DNA of 64,000 nucleotides, from assembly GCA_964600985.1 (NCBI GenBank), contig CAZRJR010000001.1, positions 45,319 through 109,318 on the forward strand, given 5' to 3'. The DNA is from an uncultured Candidatus Saccharibacteria bacterium (GTDB lineage: Bacteria > Patescibacteriota > Saccharimonadia > CAILAD01 > JADZBC01). A program made the translations under genes and the position numbers. Under the pieces are notes generated by a model. The model saw only the letters and a program-made list of their open reading frames with translations, did no database searches and had not been told where the DNA came from. Positions within the stretch are counted from its first letter, which is position 1. The number at the start of each line of letters is the position of its first letter. Positions 57,140 through 64,000 of the stretch are shown here, in pieces.

Positions 57140-57904
57140 ATGAGCGCTCAATCAGTTGACCCACTTTTAAACAAGAAGGTTATTAAGCTAGGTTTTCAGG
57201 CTTCGAATGAAGAACTGGAGCGCGTAAAAAAAGCCACTGAGATTGAGCGCGAATGGTGGTCTGAAAGAGAAGCGTATAGTAGTTTTTCTGCCATTGAAGA
57301 GGACGTAGGCCGGGGTCATATGACCAAGGTCGAGGGCGCCACGAATTATCTTCCGGCAATGAGATTCAGGAATCCAAAGCTCAAGATACAGTATCCACCA
57401 TACTTAGAAGGTTTAACCAAGGCGCTATTGGATGAACTGACGCAAGAATGGCGAACGCGTATGGATGCCGAGGATCAGCCTAAAGATGTACGACTTGCCG
57501 TAGCTAACCTAACAATTACCCAGGCTTATCAAAAAGAACTTGCCAAAAGTGGAAAGTTGGCCATTTTAGGCAATCCACATGTTCGTGGCGTGGCGTTTGA
57601 TATCGATGCTAGTGCATATTATTTTGGCGATACGCCAGTTAATGATCGACAAAATCTTAAGAGTGAATACGACAAGCGCTTCACTGACGCTCAGGCAGCT
57701 TCGTATGTTCCGCCGTTTAGGAATTTTGATGAACACCTCACACGACGACCTTTGGAGATATTTGGGGAAGTTCTACAACAAGCCAAAATAGACGGAAAGC
57801 TTAACTTTGTTCTTGAATATCCTGGAACTAATAATGCAAGCTACCATATTTGTCGTAATCCAAACTATAAGCCTAAACTTGACAGTATGGCTCGCGGAGA
57901 CTAA
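57140..57904 (+). CDS. hypothetical protein
   Basis: 254-aa ORF that immediately follows the murF-like stop, with no motif recognised. A terminator follows it. Confidence 0.5.
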   Translation: MSAQSVDPLLNKKVIKLGFQASNEELERVKKATEIEREWWSEREAYSSFSAIEEDVGRGHMTKVEGATNYLPAMRFRNPKLKIQYPPYLEGLTKALLDELTQEWRTRMDAEDQPKDVRLAVANLTITQAYQKELAKSGKLAILGNPHVRGVAFDIDASAYYFGDTPVNDRQNLKSEYDKRFTDAQAASYVPPFRNFDEHLTRRPLEIFGEVLQQAKIDGKLNFVLEYPGTNNASYHICRNPNYKPKLDSMARGD

Positions 57905-57997
57905 ACTAGCCCCATGAAATCACAACAACTCAACCTGCTGGGTCTCTTGCTTCGCTCGCCACGGTAGGTTTGTTGTATACCATATAAAAGATCTCCA

Positions 57998-58017
57998 GAC
58001 CGCCGCGAGGCGGCTTT
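57998..58017 (+). terminator. Rho-independent terminator candidate
   Basis: A ccgcc-gcga-ggcgg GC hairpin is followed by TTTTT, ~90 nt after the stop at 57904. Confidence 0.5.
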
Positions 58018-58263
58018 TTGGTTCGCCCGATTGCTTCCCAATATCGGTCTGGAAATCACATTTGCAGACCGAAGCAGGAAACAACCACGAGCTTGGAGGC
58101 TCACATGTGTAATGACGATCGCTCTAAGGCTCGCCGTGACCACAACGGCGCAAGCGACGAGGACGGAGTGGTCTACCCGCAGGCCGAGAGCTGCCCGCAC
58201 TACGGCACACCTTCTCGGGCTCTGCCGCCTGATCACCGCAACTACCCCGCCTGATCGGCCCTG

Positions 58264-58295
58264 CCAGCTGGGGTAAGTGGCAAGTGCCACTTACC
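58264..58295 (+). promoter_or_regulatory. perfect 14-bp-stem hairpin in leuS leader
   Basis: In ctggggtaagtggc-aagt-gccacttaccccag the 14-bp arms are exact reverse complements. A T-rich tract follows (cacctcacttttact), 50 nt upstream of the leuS ATG. Confidence 0.4.
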
Positions 58296-58344
58296 CCAGC
58301 ACCTCACTTTTACTATTAACCAATAAGTAGGCTACAATACAGGT

Positions 58345-61300
58345 ATGAGTAATCAATCCCCCAAATACAATCCGCAAGACATCGAACCCAAATGGCAAAA
58401 GATTTGGGATGAAACTGGTGTGTACACCGCTAACTTAGAGAGTGATAAGCCCAAGTACATTGCCATGAGTATGTTTAACTACCCTAGTGGTGCCGGCATT
58501 CACATTGGCCACGCTATGAACTACACCATAAGTGATGTAAAGGCGCGCTTTAAGCGCCAACAGGGATTCGAAAGCTATCATCCGGTTGGCTGGGATGCCT
58601 TTGGTTTACCGGCCGAAAACTATGCCATTAAGGCAGGTGTGAGTCCACAAGAGAGCATGGCTACCATCATCCCGAGCTATCATAAACAATACAAGGCCAT
58701 GGGTTGGAGCAATGACTGGGAGAAGGAAATATCTACCCACTTACCCGAATACTACAAGTGGACTCAATGGATATTTAGCCAAATGTACAAGCACGGCTTG
58801 GCGTACCAAGACAAGCGGATGCAGTGGTGGTGCAACAAGTGTCAGACTGTGCTTGCCAACGAGCAAGTGATAGACGGCAAATGCTGGCGGCACGACGGCG
58901 CAGATGATCCTATGGTAGAAAAAAAGGAAGTAAAGCAGTGGTTCTTTAAGATTACCGAGTATGCCGATGAGCTCTTAGAAGCAACTGATGATCTTGATTG
59001 GACTGAGAGTGTGAAGACAGCACAAAAGAATTGGATCGGCCGGAGCGTGGGAGCAGAAGTTAAGTTTGCAGTGGAAGGCAGCGAAAAATCTATTACAGTC
59101 TTTACTACCCGAGCCGATACACTCTTTGGTGCTACATTCCTAGTACTTGCTCCTGAGCATGAGTTGGTAAATAAACTTACCACTCCAGAGCAAAAGGAGG
59201 AAGTTGAGGCGTATATTGCGGCTGCCGCTCTTAAGACCGAGGTTGATCGCCAAGCAGCCAAGCAAAAAACGGGTGTATTCACTGGGGCGTACGCAATTAA
59301 TCCAGTAAATGGTGAGAAGGTGCCAATCTGGATAGCGGACTACGTGCTAACTGGTTACGGTACAGGTGCAATTATGGCGGTGCCAGCGCATGACGAACGA
59401 GACAATGAATTTGCAAAGAGGTTCAATCTGCCAATAGCTCCAGTTATTAAGCCGGTGACCGGCGTTCCTCAGGAGAACCCCGAGTACCGGAAGAGTATTG
59501 TTGCAATCGTATACAATCCGCGAACAGAAAAGTACCTTTCGATTAATTGGGGCAAAGATGGTGGCAATATATTCATCGGTGGCGGTCAAGAAGAGGGTGA
59601 AGATATTGTGACAACTGCCTTGCGCGAGATTCGTGAAGAAACAGGTTATCAGAATGTCAAACATACTGCTACTACGCCAACAGACATTGAGCACCACTAC
59701 TTTGCACATAGTAAGAGGGTAGCTAGAAGGATTGATTGTTCTGGATTACTATTTGAGCTAGAAGATGATCAACAATTTCAACAATCACTTGAGGCTGATG
59801 AACAGGGTAAATTTACAATTGATTGGCTAACAAAAGACGAAGTACTAAAGAGTGTTAAAGATGAACTACATAGAACATGCTTTGAACAGCTTGTATTAGA
59901 ACAAGTTTTTACAGCAGAAGGCCTGCTTATTAACTCAGGGGCATATAACGGCATGACTACGAGTGAAGCGCGTGATAGGATAATTACCGATTTGGCAGGC
60001 AAGATTGGTGATGAGGCTGTTGACGTTGAGTACACTACTAATAGCGAGCCGGTCTTTATACAGAAAGTTTCAGGAAGTGCCGTAAAGAAAGATCAGCCCT
60101 TTGTAGAACGTGAAGCTATTACGGCAATCGTAAAGCATTGGAAAGAAGATAAATATATTGGCCTAAAGTGGAAGCAAGTTGATTGGGAGACGTTGATTAC
60201 AGGTGGAGTTGAGGATGGCCAAACTCCAGAGGAAGCTGCTATCGCTGAGATTCGTGAAGAAACAGGTTACTTACACCCAGTTCTTAAGCAGGATTTCGGC
60301 ACAATGCATGCTAAGTTCTTCCATGTTCCAAAGAACGAGAACAGACACGCACACTTCTCTTGCTTGTACTTTGAATTGGCCGATGGGGTGAGAGAGGAGA
60401 TTGCTGAAGAAGAACAGCAGAATCATGAAGTTGTATGGTTGAGTGCTGAAGAAATGACAAGTTTTAAGCTACCAGCTTCGCACCGGTATATGTGGGATCA
60501 ACTTAGAGGGAATTCTTCTGGCTTAGCTGCGGAAAAAGTTAATTACAAAATGCGTGATTGGTCAGTATCACGTCAGCGCTACTGGGGTGCGCCGATACCG
60601 ATTGTGAATTGTGAAAAGTGCGGAACAGTATTGGTCCCAGAGGACGAGTTACCAGTAGAGTTGCCAGAGCTTACCGACTTCGTGCCAAGTGGTGATGGCC
60701 GCAGTGCCTTGGCCCGTGCTACTGATTGGCTCAACACTACCTGCCCTGATTGTGGTGGGCCGGCTGAGCGAGAGACGGATACCTTAGACACGTACATTTG
60801 TTCTAGTTGGTATATGTTCCGCTACTTTGATCCGCGCAATCAGCAAGAGATCTTTGAATCCAACGTAGTTAACAAGTGGATGCCGATCGATTTTTATAAT
60901 GGTGGCGATCATGCTACTGCCCATATGCTTTATGCACGGTTTGTAACCCGATTCTTTAGCAAGATTGGTTTGGTGAACAGCCCGGAGCCCTTTAAGCAGT
61001 TCCTATTTAACGGGAAGGTGCGGGCCAGTGATGGTAGCGCGTTTTCGAAGTCTAAGGGCAACGGCATAGATCCACTCGATGTAATTAATAATGGCTATGG
61101 CGCTGACGCTTTGCGCATGTACTTGATGTTCGCGGCTCCATTAGAGATTGACGCTCGTTGGGATCCGCAAGGGGTGCCGGGTACATTCCGGTTCCTCTCG
61201 CGGTTGTGGAACTTGGTTAGTGAATACCAAGCTGCGCCACAGAGTGAGTTGAGCGAAGCAGCGGGCCGGACAGTACTTAGTCCCATGCATGCTATGGTCA

Positions 61301-61743
61301 AAAAAGCTTCGCAAGATATCGAAGAAAACCACTATAATACTGCCATTGCGGCGATTATGGCTGGGCTCAATGACTTGTATAAGCAAAGGAGCACGCTAGT
61401 GCGAGGCAAGGTGTGGCAGCAAGCGCTCGAGATGATCGTGGCTACTGTAGCGCCATTTGCGCCACACATTGCGGATGAGTTGTGGCAGCAGCTCGGTCAC
61501 AGCAGCAGCGTGCACAAGGACACTTGGCCGAAGTGGGATGAGGCATACCTTGTGAGTGACGTTATCACGATCGTGGTGCAAGTAAATGGTAAGCTACGTG
61601 GTGAGTTCAGTGTATCTACCGATAGTACAAAGGAGGACTTGGAAGTAGAAGCGCGCCGCTTGGCCGAAGAAAAGGGGTGGATAAAAGATGAGGTTAAACG
61701 AGTCGTGGTCGTGCCGGGGAGGCTGGTTAACATAGTAGTTTAG
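58345..61743 (+). CDS. leuS: leucyl-tRNA synthetase carrying two in-frame Nudix-box-containing insertions
   Basis: 1132 aa. The HIGH region is YPSGAGIHIGHAMNY, the CP1 editing region has TTRADTLFGAT and VPAHDERDNEFAKRF, and NSGAYNG, MRDWSVSRQRYWGAPIP and the KMSKS-like FSKSKGNG are present, with the C-terminal domain. Two extra segments carry Nudix boxes (see findings). Confidence 0.9.
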   Translation: MSNQSPKYNPQDIEPKWQKIWDETGVYTANLESDKPKYIAMSMFNYPSGAGIHIGHAMNYTISDVKARFKRQQGFESYHPVGWDAFGLPAENYAIKAGVSPQESMATIIPSYHKQYKAMGWSNDWEKEISTHLPEYYKWTQWIFSQMYKHGLAYQDKRMQWWCNKCQTVLANEQVIDGKCWRHDGADDPMVEKKEVKQWFFKITEYADELLEATDDLDWTESVKTAQKNWIGRSVGAEVKFAVEGSEKSITVFTTRADTLFGATFLVLAPEHELVNKLTTPEQKEEVEAYIAAAALKTEVDRQAAKQKTGVFTGAYAINPVNGEKVPIWIADYVLTGYGTGAIMAVPAHDERDNEFAKRFNLPIAPVIKPVTGVPQENPEYRKSIVAIVYNPRTEKYLSINWGKDGGNIFIGGGQEEGEDIVTTALREIREETGYQNVKHTATTPTDIEHHYFAHSKRVARRIDCSGLLFELEDDQQFQQSLEADEQGKFTIDWLTKDEVLKSVKDELHRTCFEQLVLEQVFTAEGLLINSGAYNGMTTSEARDRIITDLAGKIGDEAVDVEYTTNSEPVFIQKVSGSAVKKDQPFVEREAITAIVKHWKEDKYIGLKWKQVDWETLITGGVEDGQTPEEAAIAEIREETGYLHPVLKQDFGTMHAKFFHVPKNENRHAHFSCLYFELADGVREEIAEEEQQNHEVVWLSAEEMTSFKLPASHRYMWDQLRGNSSGLAAEKVNYKMRDWSVSRQRYWGAPIPIVNCEKCGTVLVPEDELPVELPELTDFVPSGDGRSALARATDWLNTTCPDCGGPAERETDTLDTYICSSWYMFRYFDPRNQQEIFESNVVNKWMPIDFYNGGDHATAHMLYARFVTRFFSKIGLVNSPEPFKQFLFNGKVRASDGSAFSKSKGNGIDPLDVINNGYGADALRMYLMFAAPLEIDARWDPQGVPGTFRFLSRLWNLVSEYQAAPQSELSEAAGRTVLSPMHAMVKKASQDIEENHYNTAIAAIMAGLNDLYKQRSTLVRGKVWQQALEMIVATVAPFAPHIADELWQQLGHSSSVHKDTWPKWDEAYLVSDVITIVVQVNGKLRGEFSVSTDSTKEDLEVEARRLAEEKGWIKDEVKRVVVVPGRLVNIVV

Positions 61744-61767
61744 TCCCTCTCATGCCAAAAAGCCTTC

Positions 61768-61795
61768 GACTCCGCCCCGGAAGTGGGGCGGAGTC
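61768..61795. terminator. bidirectional Rho-independent terminator
   Basis: gactccgcccc-ggaagt-ggggcggagtc is an 11-bp perfect stem. The flanking aaaaag on the plus strand gives a T-tract for the minus-strand gene, and gttgttgt follows on the plus side, weaker for leuS. Confidence 0.7.
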
Positions 61796-61812
61796 GTTGT
61801 TGTACGAGCTGC

Positions 61813-62172
61813 TCAGGCCTGTGCTTGCACCTTGTACTCGCGTTCCTGGGGGTTCTGAGCGTGGAACTCCACAGCCTTCTCGAACAGCAAGATCTCGGTC
61901 TCGGAATCGCGTGCCAGGAATGCGTTGAGCCAGTCCTTCCAGCTTGCTTCGAACTCCCTTGGCAACGGGTAGGTGTGGTCGATGAACGAGAAAGAAGCCT
62001 TGATCTGCGTGGAGAGCGCGGTGTCCTCCACCTCTTCGAGAGACTGCTTGCCGCACATCAGGTGGCAGATCCTGTTCAGTTCTCTGATATCGGTCCACGC
62101 CACCCAACCGGTTGAGGGGCTAGTGAGGAAGCCCAGGGCTTCTGCGAATGTTCCTTGCAACTGCTTGGCCAT
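61813..62172 (-). CDS. hypothetical protein on GC-rich insert between leuS and yceD
   Basis: 119 aa from the internal Met (MAKQLQGTFAEALGF...). The ORF-track start at 62313 lies in AT-rich intergenic sequence. The gene is visibly more GC-rich than its flanks. Confidence 0.5.
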   Translation of the reverse strand: MAKQLQGTFAEALGFLTSPSTGWVAWTDIRELNRICHLMCGKQSLEEVEDTALSTQIKASFSFIDHTYPLPREFEASWKDWLNAFLARDSETEILLFEKAVEFHAQNPQEREYKVQAQA

Positions 62173-62248
62173 TCCTGGCCTCCTTTGGTCCACAGGTTCA
62201 TTAGGTAGAACGAGAGTATTATACAATTCATTGGTCGGTTGAGCAATA

Positions 62249-62689
62249 ATGAGGCATTGCAAAGAATGCGAAAAAATGCTACAATTCGTAGCGAAGAATA
62301 TGCTAATAAACATTCTGGATCTAAGCCGAAAGCCCGAGGGAACTCAAGATACTCGAGCCATTCACATTGACACTTTAGAAGACGTAGACTTGGCAAAGCC
62401 CTTTGAGGCCCAGGTAGAAGTTATGGTAATAACGCCACAGCACTTTTCGGTGCACACACGAGCTAGCCTGGTGGTAAACCGCACGTGTGATCGTTGCCTT
62501 AAACCCTACGAGTACCCACTGAGCCTGGACTTTACCCAAGAGTTTGCCGACGACAGCGATGACGCCGACTGGCCTATAGTAAACAACCAGATCGATGTGC
62601 TTGAGCCGATTCGCCAAGAAGTCTTACTAAACATTCCAATGAAAAGCTTGTGTTCACCAGATTGCAAAGGCATTCTTGAGCCACACTAA
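62249..62689 (+). CDS. yceD: YceD/DUF177 family protein (23S rRNA accumulation protein)
   Basis: 146 aa with paired Cys motifs (CDRCLKPYEY ... CSPDCKG), positioned immediately upstream of rpmF, which is the conserved yceD-rpmF arrangement. Confidence 0.65.
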   Translation: MRHCKECEKMLQFVAKNMLINILDLSRKPEGTQDTRAIHIDTLEDVDLAKPFEAQVEVMVITPQHFSVHTRASLVVNRTCDRCLKPYEYPLSLDFTQEFADDSDDADWPIVNNQIDVLEPIRQEVLLNIPMKSLCSPDCKGILEPH

Positions 62690-62716
62690 CTAATACCAAC
62701 AGGAAATAGGAACCTT

Positions 62717-62884
62717 ATGCCAGTACCAAAAAAACGCACCTCCAAAGCTACTAAGGGTCAGCGTCGTAGTCACGACAGCCTTAAGTCAACTCAGCTTGTA
62801 GTCGAAAAAACTTCGGGCACTAGCCTACCGCGACGATTGCACAAAGCTGCAGCACTGGGTATAGCACGAATTAAGAAAGTTTAG
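62717..62884 (+). CDS. rpmF: 50S ribosomal protein L32
   Basis: MPVPKKRTSKATKGQRRSHDSLK... is the canonical L32 N-terminus. At 55 aa it falls below the ORF-track length cutoff. Confidence 0.85.
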   Translation: MPVPKKRTSKATKGQRRSHDSLKSTQLVVEKTSGTSLPRRLHKAAALGIARIKKV

Positions 62885-62892
62885 GCCATAGT

Positions 62893-63366
62893 ATGGCTTC
62901 GAATCGTCACCTCGGCCGGATCGTAGCGCTCCAAAGCTTGTATGAAAACGATTTTCGCAGCGATATAGCTGAGCTTGCTACAGACCTCGACGAGATAATT
63001 AAGCGAAACTTAAGCGTCTATGGCGAGAGTATAGAAGACACGAGTTTTGTATCCGACTTGGTTAAAGGTACGATCGAGCACCAAGAGCAGGAAGACGCCA
63101 TGATCGTGCCGGCAGCTCCGGAGTGGCCGATTGACCAGATTGCTAAAGTAGACCGAGCGATTCTGCGCATGGCCCTGTACGAACTAGCCATTAAGCGCGA
63201 CGTACCGCCCAAGGTGGTGATTAACGAGGCAGTTGAGTTGGCTAAGTCGTTTGGTGGGGACAATTCCAGTAAGTTTATAAACGGTGTGCTAGGTACTATT
63301 TATCGACAGAGTGATTTTTATGAACCAGAAGAAGACAAACAAGCCCAAGCTAAAAAGTCAGCGTAA
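62893..63366 (+). CDS. nusB: transcription antitermination factor NusB
   Basis: 157 aa. RHLGRIVALQSLYENDF and the two all-helical subdomains match the NusB pattern. Confidence 0.85.
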   Translation: MASNRHLGRIVALQSLYENDFRSDIAELATDLDEIIKRNLSVYGESIEDTSFVSDLVKGTIEHQEQEDAMIVPAAPEWPIDQIAKVDRAILRMALYELAIKRDVPPKVVINEAVELAKSFGGDNSSKFINGVLGTIYRQSDFYEPEEDKQAQAKKSA

Positions 63367-63826
63367 GGGCGATTCGCGCGCCAAGGCAATACCGGAGTAT
63401 ACTGCTGGTGGCATAACGTTTCGTAGGACTAAAAGTGGTGCTATAGAGTTTTTGCTTATGCAAGACCACCGTTCGCGTTGGACAATTCCTAAAGGTCACG
63501 TAGAGTCGGGCGAGACGCTCGAACAAACTGCCTTGCGCGAGATGCAAGAAGAAGCCGGCCTTACTAAACTCAAAATTGTAGATCGCCTAGACAAAGTGCA
63601 TTTCTTTTACCGTCGCGAGGGTAAGCTGATATTTATGACGACCTTTATATTCCTTATGGAAGCACTCGACCCTGATGAGCCCTTGGTGTTAGAGGACATT
63701 CAATGGGTCCAGGACCTTAAATGGTTCCCGGCTGACCAAGCACGTGCTTTAATAGAGTATAAGGGCACTAAGCTACTACTCGATATGAGCGTGCAGAAGC
63801 TAAGAGAAATGGGGCTAGAGGTATAA
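63320..63826 (+). CDS. Nudix hydrolase
   Basis: The Nudix box [23 protein letters not shown] fits Gx5Ex7REUxEExGU. The exact start is unclear because any ATG start would overlap the nusB 3' end; a GTG/TTG start is possible. Confidence 0.7.
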
Positions 63827-63837
63827 CATGTTTGAGC

Positions 63838-64000
63838 AAAAGAAAATCGAAGACATACTAGGTATAGTATTTAGCTCCCCGGAGCTCATAAAGCGCGCCT
63901 TCGTGCACCGTAGCTATATAAATGAGCACCCTAAAGCCGGGCTAGAGCACAATGAGCGCTTGGAGTTCTTGGGTGACGCTGTGTTGGAGCTTGTAGTTAC
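63838..64000 (+). CDS. rnc: ribonuclease III, N-terminal part (3' end outside window)
   Basis: [15 protein letters not shown] is the RNase III signature motif. The frame remains open to the window end. Confidence 0.8.

Follow-up and report, generated by a model that had tools for sequence, protein, structure and literature searches.

The leuS gene of the 64,000-nucleotide stretch of DNA analysed here (the window) encodes a protein whose sequence identifies it as a bacterial leucyl-tRNA synthetase (LeuRS) of Saccharimonadales (Patescibacteria/CPR) with intact synthetic-site and CP1 editing-site motifs. At the C-terminal margin of its CP1 editing domain, two surface loops of only a few residues have each been replaced by a complete Nudix-fold domain that continues the reading frame. 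Both inserts belong to one small Nudix family specific to Patescibacteria, and the LeuRS-Nudix architecture is common and highly variable in this group. We regard the architecture, together with the evolutionary coupling of the Nudix modules with LeuRS, as close to certain. The initial annotation knew of no earlier report of the combination; no published description of a LeuRS-Nudix or other synthetase-Nudix architecture was found in literature searches, and the arrangement is not a one-off but widespread in Patescibacteria.

Leucyl-tRNA synthetase host

The leuS reading frame, taken from the ORF list (58345..61743, forward strand, both inserts and the stop codon included), starts with ATG and codes for 1132 amino acids, exactly as initially annotated. 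With the inserts kept, the whole protein scores 929.7 bits against the TIGR00396 leuS_bact model (cut-off 548.4). Deletion of both inserts in silico leaves 810 amino acids, which also pass TIGR00396 (954.4 bits) with an unbroken match across both junctions, and the PF13603 editing domain (222 bits) then becomes a single stretch covering positions 1-184 of 185. The continuity restored in this way confirms the earlier proposal of a genuine double insertion into an intact LeuRS.

The N-terminal part of the synthetase (58345..59454, forward strand; residues 1-370) comprises the Rossmann half and then the portion of the CP1 editing domain that ends at about position 146 of the Pfam model, with Pfam matches to PF00133 at 16-230 and PF13603 at 228-374. 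The HIGH motif occupies residues 53-56, and the editing site is represented by the T-rich motif TTRADT (residues 254-259) and by AHDERD (348-353); no substitution occurs among 62 relatives at T254, T255, R256, T259, H349, D350, R352, or D353. Between the two inserts lies a short C-terminal remainder of the CP1 editing domain (59908..60009, forward strand; residues 522-555, FTAEGLLINSGAYNG...DLAGK), which aligns to residues 373-404 of the Thermus thermophilus (Tt) LeuRS. The C-terminal part (60523..61740, forward strand; residues 727-1132), recognized by its TIGR00396 and PF08264 matches, opens with KVNYKMRDWSVSRQRYWG and contains the second Rossmann half and the anticodon-binding and C-terminal domains. 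The KMSKS equivalent is AFSKSK (residues 899-904), in which the first Lys is replaced throughout the group of relatives, and F900, K902, and G905 are invariant.

The protein has the full domain set of the canonical bacterial LeuRS from T. thermophilus (1H3N/2BTE), E. coli (4AQ7), and N. gonorrhoeae (6Q89), with 30-33% identity, and a Foldseek comparison with the T. thermophilus enzyme gave a target-normalised TM-score of up to 0.83. It differs from these proteins in AFSKSK for KMSKS and in having Nudix domains of ~151 and ~171 amino acids instead of loops of 4 and 3 residues.

Integrity of the double insertion

The GC content of the inserts (0.38-0.43, below 0.47-0.50 in the flanks) and their patchy presence over the LeuRS tree could be expected of an artefact or a selfish element, whether a chimera, a false joining of two genes, a pseudogene in decay, or an intein-like mobile insertion later excised from the protein. 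However, positions 57931..64000 of the window recur with 100% identity in a Logan assembly of run SRR14932662, and orthologues with the same two inserts are present in five other assemblies. Misassembly is unlikely: since the identical assembly is independent, we do not take the double insert for a chimera. Moreover, the reading frame is single and open, with no stops, and insert 2 is as conserved as the LeuRS core. Pfam reports only NUDIX within the inserts and no Hint, intein, or homing-endonuclease domain, and the borders carry no flanking direct repeats. A chimeric assembly or fused gene call was rejected given the identical independent assembly and the orthologues, and an intein or homing-type insertion was rejected given the domain content and borders. 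The artefact or selfish-element explanation is effectively refuted, and we leave it only the slightest probability.

Two Nudix modules

The insert boundaries were refined by alignment with an insert-free relative and with the T. thermophilus LeuRS, and lie within about 40 nt of those first proposed. Insert 1 (type A; 59455..59907, forward strand; residues ~371-521) replaces the 4-residue loop Tt 369-372. Insert 2 (type B; 60010..60522, forward strand; residues ~556-726) replaces the loop Tt 405-407 in the CP1-to-core linker. Taken alone, each of them is above the PF00293 NUDIX gathering cut-off of 21.1 (E=2.2e-10 and 41.1 bits for insert 1; E=5.1e-12 and 46.4 bits for insert 2). Both have the alpha/beta/alpha Nudix fold, and the pLDDT of insert 1 in the predicted full-length structure is 87-96. 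The assignment of both inserts to the Nudix superfamily, originally made from the motifs, holds at the level of profiles as well as of fold.

The two Nudix boxes quoted in the initial annotation are both present. The canonical box of insert 1 (59581..59649, forward strand; residues 413-435, GGQEEGEDIVTTALREIREETGY), found by direct reading and by regular expression, is indeed in full agreement with Gx5Ex7REUxEExGU. Its residues E428, E431, and E432, which are predicted to bind the metal, are at least 90% conserved, and all three core positions are Glu in the 107 type-A modules with a box, one position being forced by the regular expression. Insert 1, found in 115 of the 120 closest LeuRS, is the old, lineage-wide module.

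The variant box of insert 2 (60202..60270, forward strand; residues 620-642, GGVEDGQTPEEAAIAEIREETGY) has Q626 and A634 in place of the usual Glu and Arg and keeps E635, E638, and E639. These substitutions had been noted before and the box called degenerate; comparison with free-standing homologs shows a conserved family variant and not decay. In particular, every type-B box, whether free-standing (46) or embedded (12), has Gln at the first-Glu position. The Arg position is never Arg in the 46 free-standing proteins, Ala being the commonest residue (35/46 free-standing, 8/12 embedded). In the 46 free-standing boxes the two most critical Glu never vary, and at the third position 38 sequences have Glu and the other 8 Gln.

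Free-standing relatives of insert 2

Insert 2 corresponds to a whole Nudix protein of the free-standing type plus short linkers. Free-standing Nudix proteins of ~160 aa in Patescibacteria (P0121, P0122, and ~45 others) belong to the same family, with 52-71% identity over the whole length and the common variant box GG[IV]ExGQT...AE[IV]xEE[TS]GY. Whereas these are separate genes, their counterpart in the window is embedded in LeuRS. The genes for P0121 and P0122 lie immediately upstream of leuS in sister genomes, and insert 2 looks, from these comparisons, orthologous to this upstream gene. As its counterpart, insert 2 suggests that one gene apparently switches between the states of neighbour and internal domain. 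A tblastn search of the 440-bp gap upstream of the window leuS (57905..58344) revealed no free-standing Nudix copy or remnant. There is likewise no Nudix remnant upstream of leuS in P0002, a relative whose LeuRS (93%/83% core identity) has no insert 2, although this contig begins just 574 bp before the gene.

Outside Saccharimonadales, the free-standing family genes are mostly located away from leuS and have no linkage to it; the only recurrent neighbour is a HAD phosphatase gene, which precedes several of them (HAD-Nudix gene pairs in L004/L005, L078, and L087). We also observed that free-standing Nudix proteins are misnamed 'leuS' in public MAG records because of the LeuRS-Nudix architecture.

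Distribution in Patescibacteria

The LeuRS of Patescibacteria contain from zero to three Nudix modules at no fewer than four sites, and HAD, alpha/beta-hydrolase, or ASCH domains are sometimes present in the same LeuRS region. Among 150 representatives, the module host, where recognisable, is almost always LeuRS (95 by BLAST, in addition to fragments with PF13603). None of them has IleRS, ValRS, or MetRS as the host, despite the common CP1 architecture. A PNPase-like protein is an occasional other host, and an AAA_28 kinase-like gene adjoins it. The two inserts of the window differ in spread: insert 1 is lineage-wide, and insert 2 is rare. Close relatives with a module-free LeuRS also exist (P0047/48/51, P0099, P0119), and the absence of any module there, or of insert 2 in P0002, indicates that the modules are dispensable for LeuRS function. 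The patchy presence over the LeuRS tree was seen in an NJ tree that was used for topology only, the assignment of insertion sites resting on alignments.

Genomic context of leuS

A perfect 13-bp GC-rich hairpin identified by a terminator scan 24 nt after the leuS stop (61767..61796, no strand assigned) is likely a bidirectional terminator, a prediction made from a consensus match only. The GC-rich leuS leader contains no T-box or other known RNA element at Rfam gathering thresholds or E<=1. A canonical Ap4A-hydrolase-like Nudix gene is located 1.6 kb downstream of leuS (63311..63826). It is similar to the Aquifex Ap4A hydrolase 3i7u (E=4.6e-20) and to NUDT2 (E about 1e-11), and in all relatives examined it is kept beside nusB, whether their LeuRS has modules or not.

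Comparison with known Nudix enzymes and fusions

No family-level sequence match connects the inserts with RppH/NudH or with the Nudix Ap(n)A hydrolases (Ndx1 1VC8, Rv2985 9CXX, NUDT2), and type B further differs from these enzymes in the absence of the box Glu and Arg. RppH-type NCBIfam models are repeatedly among the best named matches of the inserts, though far below cut-off: 17-30 bits against cut-offs of 116-259 (NF001936 and related models; TIGR02705 YtkD). Searched against PDB sequences, the family profile matches the NTPase NudI best (E=9.6e-5). The best structural neighbour, the Enterococcus faecalis MutT/nudix protein 2AZW (Q836H1), has only 18% identity, and its function is entered as 'Undetermined' in the Nudix clan survey. 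Since 2AZW is uncharacterised, no function can be transferred from it to the modules.

The inserts show no whole-domain similarity to the Ap4A/Ap(n)A hydrolase subfamily (NUDT2, 3I7U, Ndx1), and their matches to solved Ap4A hydrolases are weak and confined to the box (1f3y; E=1.3e-3 for the family profile, 0.013 for insert 1). Ap4A/Ap(n)A hydrolases have a conserved X-loop Tyr ~17 residues past the Nudix box (PMC5389931). Position +17 after the box is Tyr in insert 1 and Phe in insert 2; family-wide it is always aromatic, with Phe about as frequent as Tyr.

These observations bear on the earlier idea that the modules are dedicated Ap4A hydrolases, which would specifically destroy diadenosine tetraphosphate, a side product of the synthetase. 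It is weakened by the weak similarity of the inserts to solved Ap4A hydrolases and by the separate canonical gene downstream, which is far closer to these enzymes and is retained beside nusB even where LeuRS has no module. The Phe found at position +17 in about half of all modules, insert 2 included, also argues against it. LeuRS is not known as a strong Ap4A producer, which counts against this function as well, and we consider it improbable.

A parallel among known fusions is NadM-Nudix, an NMN adenylyltransferase of the HIGH superfamily fused to an ADP-ribose pyrophosphatase (PMC7824862; NCBIfam NF003787), where a HIGH-class nucleotidyltransferase is likewise covalently joined to a Nudix hydrolase. 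However, NadM-Nudix is an end-to-end fusion with another Nudix subfamily and a known NAD/ADP-ribose logic, whereas the LeuRS modules are internal editing-domain insertions, up to three per protein. An IleRS with an N-acetyltransferase (NCBIfam NF040702 'ileS_w_GNAT') provides a precedent for a class Ia synthetase with an extra enzyme domain; the synthetase and the cargo are different, and the window LeuRS reaches 71 bits against a cut-off of 1999, through the common synthetase core only.

Possible function of the modules

We suggest that this LeuRS would charge and proofread tRNA-Leu in the usual way, and that the two Nudix modules may ride on the mobile CP1 domain. They would act as Mg2+-dependent pyrophosphohydrolases that rely on the three conserved Glu of the Nudix box and cleave a polyphosphate-linked nucleotide near the RNA-handling host. 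Possible substrates are a free dinucleoside polyphosphate that the synthetase produces and, on a bound RNA, a 5'-tri- or diphosphate or an Np(n)N-type cap, as with RppH. Conservation of the catalytic triad makes an active pyrophosphohydrolase likely, and from the sequences we hold it probable that the modules are catalytically active. Our best guess, made tentatively and at somewhat less than an even chance, is a substrate class of the RppH/Ap(n)A type with functional coupling to the host. As a whole, the explanation of a LeuRS with two active modules acting close to its RNA-handling host seems to us evenly poised between right and wrong.

Several observations speak against this explanation. 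The Nudix family has no characterised member, and its best structural neighbour gives no guidance. The modules are dispensable, the LeuRS region also takes in other domains, as a site generally tolerant of insertions would, and a canonical Ap4A-hydrolase-like gene is already present nearby. In addition, the free-standing genes outside Saccharimonadales mostly lie apart from leuS, and with a HAD gene ahead of several free-standing genes, small-molecule nucleotide metabolism fits as well as RNA ends.

The absence of the usual first Glu and Arg from the type-B box, the location of the insertion sites on both sides of the hinge of the mobile CP1 domain, and the varying copy number would also be consistent with non-catalytic modules, which would sense a ligand or bind RNA or protein, like NrtR or the MutY C-terminal domain, and in this way tune tRNA binding or the movement of CP1. 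We find this quite improbable, given that the three Glu that matter most for metal binding and catalysis hardly vary, whether the protein is embedded or free-standing, and that the ~160-aa free-standing members resemble ordinary small enzymes.

Alternatively, the modules could be ordinary pyrophosphatases of nucleotide sanitation or salvage, which convert NTP or NDP-X to NMP ahead of a HAD phosphatase and have no LeuRS-specific substrate. They would then occupy a loop that tolerates insertions, in an essential and strongly expressed gene of a reduced genome, and gain nothing but co-expression. The polymorphic presence of modules among close relatives, the unrelated hydrolase cargo in the same LeuRS region, the HAD-Nudix gene pairs, the match of the family profile to NudI, and the kinase-like gene adjoining the PNPase-like host all agree with such passengers. 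Their strong host specificity and the independent insertions at four or more sites, combined with operon-like adjacency, do not, and we regard this alternative as rather unlikely, if still worth keeping in mind.

Going beyond the preferred explanation of active modules close to the host, one may speculate that LeuRS of Patescibacteria, and occasionally other RNA-end enzymes such as the PNPase-like protein, provide the scaffold on which a dedicated Nudix hydrolase gives the synthetase a third hydrolytic activity. This could be decapping or 5'-polyphosphate removal on the bound tRNA, or an activity that destroys non-cognate aminoacyl-adenylates or by-products derived from adenylates. One and the same gene would relocate, repeatedly and with precision, between its free-standing position upstream of leuS and in-frame positions within it. 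In this extended form the proposal is unlikely to hold in full.

Implications

Few enzymes have been studied as thoroughly as the aminoacyl-tRNA synthetases, and the CP1 domain makes the bacterial LeuRS a drug target. Across an entire superphylum, this domain appears to bear between one and three Nudix hydrolases, in some cases together with HAD, esterase-type, or ASCH domains. This implies that selection links the synthesis of leucyl-tRNA to the hydrolysis of nucleotides or RNA ends, a connection that had not been described before. Close relatives with zero, one, or two modules, or with the free-standing gene upstream, form a ready-made genetic series for the study of module function. Finally, these bacteria offer an apparent case of interconversion between a gene next to that of an essential enzyme and a domain inside this enzyme.

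Domain architecture of the leucyl-tRNA synthetase

The leuS gene is a single open reading frame on the plus strand (58345..61743) encoding 1132 amino acids, as the initial annotation had it. Its product matches TIGR00396, the NCBIfam equivalog model of bacterial LeuRS, in three stretches (929.7 bits; cut-off 548.4), and Pfam identifies, besides two NUDIX domains (PF00293), the catalytic core of class I synthetases, the editing domain of LeuRS (PF13603) and the anticodon-binding domain. The two Nudix-box strings reported earlier are present, starting at residues 413 and 620, and each insert scanned alone matches PF00293 well over the gathering score (insert 1, 59497..59910, E=2.2e-10; insert 2, 60019..60531, E=5.1e-12). 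The protein is a bacterial LeuRS, and each insert belongs to the Nudix superfamily; since the TIGR00396, PF00293 and motif matches agree, the observation of two Nudix inserts is correct, far beyond chance.

Alignment to an insert-free relative (P0047, 814 aa) and to Thermus thermophilus LeuRS placed insert 1 at residues ~371-521 (59455..59907, plus strand), where it replaces a four-residue loop (T. thermophilus residues 369-372), and insert 2 at residues ~556-726 (60010..60522, plus strand), in place of a three-residue loop (405-407). In silico deletion of both leaves 810 residues, which match TIGR00396 continuously over both junctions (954 bits), as expected of a genuine in-frame insertion, and the Pfam editing domain in one stretch (positions 1-184 of 185). 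Thus, insert 1 splits the editing domain, CP1, at model position ~146-148, and insert 2 lies about five residues beyond its end, on the linker to the catalytic core. In agreement with the initial annotation, the LeuRS motifs are intact: HIGH occupies residues 53-56, the T-rich motif TTRADT and the editing motif AHDERD are invariant in 62 relatives, and the KMSKS loop has the form AFSKSK, a variant seen group-wide.

An artefactual origin was rejected, because a Logan assembly of run SRR14932662 matches window positions 57931..64000 (6,070 bp) with 100% identity, and five further assemblies encode orthologues in which both inserts occupy these sites. Pfam found no intein or endonuclease domain in the inserts, and no repeats flank them.

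Distribution of the Nudix modules

The closest homologues of this LeuRS belong to Candidatus Saccharimonadales/Saccharibacteria. Among the 120 closest, 115 have a Nudix module at the site of insert 1, so that this insertion is lineage-wide; the site of insert 2 is occupied in only six, the window included, and five proteins of ~812 aa are module-free. One protein (P0021) has a module at the second site only, another (P0010) has a module of the insert-2 kind (type B) at the first site, and in three (P0056, P0069, and P0075) the second module splits the NSGxYNG motif after NSG. Modules were also seen ahead of CP1 and in the stretch that separates its start from the T-rich motif; a single protein can contain as many as three.

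A comparison of insert 1 with 1.84 billion cluster representatives yielded only 289 clusters at E<=1e-3, so that the Nudix family is small and specific. Among the best 150 of these 289 clusters, BLAST identified 95 as LeuRS or fragments of it, 37 are free-standing in size, and most of the remainder, of ~280 aa, also contain the LeuRS editing domain. A type-B pattern scan of one genome per GTDB species, from which the 80 best loci were taken, gave overwhelmingly Patescibacteria labels (Saccharibacteria, Paceibacteria, Nomura-, Moran-, Berkel-, Sung-, Colwell-, Azam-, Doudna-, and Staskawiczbacteria) and a few MAG titles with other, probably mis-binned, labels. The module lies within the leuS frame (up to 1,559 aa) in 68 of these loci; in three it is a free-standing gene directly upstream of leuS, in one it lies nearby and in eight elsewhere. 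HAD, serine/alpha-beta-hydrolase or ASCH domains are also present in some LeuRS of this set.

Other LeuRS of Patescibacteria are as long as 1,460-1,560 aa (loci L044:2684-7360, L030:1137-5753, and L016:1355-5737; proteins P0108 and P0109). Three Nudix modules are accompanied by a serine/alpha-beta hydrolase domain in L044 and P0109, a HAD phosphatase in L030 and ASCH in P0108; in L016 the editing-domain model is matched three separate times. A 949-aa saccharibacterial LeuRS (L006:914-3763) has no Nudix module and contains an unrelated ~135-aa insertion near the CP1 start, with no Pfam match; a free-standing type-B Nudix gene lies directly upstream of it.

Origin and evolution of the inserts

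The box of insert 2 had been described as degenerate. A search with this insert detected 47 free-standing Nudix proteins (52-70% identity), almost all of them ~150-190 aa long, and every one has the box GG[IV]ExGQT...AE[IV]xEE[TS]GY; it is therefore a conserved family trait. The genes of the two closest, P0122 and P0121 (71% and 67% identity to the insert-2 core), directly precede leuS, on its strand, in neighbourhoods that have the gene order of the window, Mur-ligase ... leuS ... nusB-Nudix-rnc. The free-standing protein aligns whole (residues 2-163) to insert 2. Its divergence from insert 2 is within the range of the embedded orthologues (65-80%), in which the LeuRS cores have diverged to the same extent (77-81% and 60-69%), as expected of one gene that is found either next to leuS, upstream, or inside it as a domain.

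The closest relative of the window LeuRS (P0002, 93%/83% core identity) lacks insert 2, and in a neighbour-joining tree of LeuRS cores proteins with two modules and with none are interspersed with one-module proteins, which implies repeated precise loss and/or gain of modules. The two inserts are 31% identical (E=3e-15) and are thus members of one family. Of the two, insert 1 is the faster-evolving (32-58% identity, against 61-74% for insert 2), and constraint on insert 2 is comparable to that on the LeuRS core. Both the architecture and its evolutionary coupling are firmly supported.

The 23-nt sequence GAGATTCGTGAAGAAACAGGTTA occurs twice as a perfect direct repeat (59626..59648 and 60247..60269) and encodes EIREETGY of both boxes. 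Codon identity over nearly eight codons in modules only ~31% identical at the protein level suggests a small gene-conversion tract; codon bias may also account for it. Two 157-aa free-standing Nudix proteins of Parcubacteria MAGs (P0144 and P0148, loci L003/L085) bear the name 'leuS' in NCBI records, evidently because the annotation was transferred from LeuRS-Nudix fusions; their genes do not adjoin leuS.

Sequences flanking leuS

Between a terminator-like hairpin (58000..58013) and leuS lies a GC-rich (~0.58) non-coding stretch (58020..58300) that ends in a 32-nt perfect palindromic hairpin (58268..58300) and has no Rfam match, even at E<=1. Only 7 nt separate a promoter-like site (58309..58338) from the ATG of leuS that follows it, and the transcript may therefore be leaderless. 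Downstream of the gene, a second GC-rich (~0.58) stretch (61750..62250) starts with a perfect 13-bp hairpin (61767..61796) and contains only overlapping, unconvincing ORFs on both strands; at this position relatives L089 and L092 have a small minus-strand gene (119-124 aa, no Pfam match). The plus-strand 254-aa ORF between the Mur-ligase gene and leuS (57140..57904) has no NCBIfam match, and relatives have different genes there (a 428-aa or 345-aa uncharacterised protein, or an aminotransferase).

Possible function of the modules

The glutamate triad equivalent to MutT E53/E56/E57 is kept in 107 of 111 type-A modules (the insert-1 kind), 12 of 14 embedded type-B modules and 46 of 46 free-standing members (one position being E or Q), one of the three positions being fixed by the regular expression used. 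This conservation, together with the core-like constraint on insert 2, makes it probable that the modules are active hydrolases. No close solved or curated family matches them; the best structural neighbour, 2AZW, is uncharacterised.

The initial annotation had suggested, as pure inference, Ap4A hydrolysis in cis. The modules fail sequence tests for the Ap4A-hydrolase and RppH families, and the idea is weakened by a separate plus-strand Nudix gene (63311..63826, 171 aa, canonical box) that overlaps the end of nusB (62893..63366) and is clearly related to solved Ap4A/Ap6A hydrolases (3i7u, E=4.6e-20; NUDT2 and Ndx1 also match). It keeps this position in all relatives examined, including those with module-free LeuRS, and L001, L006, L089, L090, and L091 share the order nusB-Nudix-RNase III.

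There are hints of an RppH/Ap(n)A-hydrolase-like activity: RppH or YtkD are repeatedly the best named NCBIfam matches, all sub-threshold; X-loop position +17 is always aromatic; and the only non-LeuRS hosts found are RNA-end enzymes (PNPase/RNase-PH-like, a real gene in several assemblies; possibly ProRS). Other hints are of ordinary nucleotide metabolism, namely a HAD phosphatase gene repeatedly directly upstream of free-standing members, a HAD domain within one triple-Nudix LeuRS, the dispensability of the modules in close relatives and the acceptance of other cargo in the same LeuRS region.

The 519-aa PNPase/RNase-PH-like protein (P0318/P0278, L093:4001-5560) has its Nudix module, of the same family, between its two PH sub-domains; it is represented by six near-identical members of its cluster, on contigs of up to 74 kb, and an AAA_28 kinase-like gene follows it. 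A 1318-aa non-LeuRS fusion on a 9-kb ENA contig (P0212) combines two weak modules of this family with GNAT, RimL-type GNAT (PF13302) and M17 leucyl-aminopeptidase domains. A HAD hydrolase-Nudix (type B)-cupin cluster recurs in Paceibacteria-type genomes (L004:3089-4552, L078:3427-4938, and L087:3376-4474, the last HAD with a weak 5'-nucleotidase match).

Comparison with known proteins

The closest precedents for such an architecture are NadM-Nudix, in which a Nudix domain is fused to a HIGH-class nucleotidyltransferase (PMC7824862), and IleRS with a GNAT domain (NCBIfam NF040702); unlike the window LeuRS, neither is an editing-domain insertion. As the initial annotation had supposed, a full-text literature search turned up no account of any LeuRS-Nudix or aaRS-Nudix protein, and a comprehensive Nudix-clan survey never mentions tRNA synthetases; the architecture is already in public databases, unremarked. 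The window protein is a genuine and well-defined LeuRS variant, apparently undescribed so far, and one instance of a widespread, very plastic trait of Patescibacteria.
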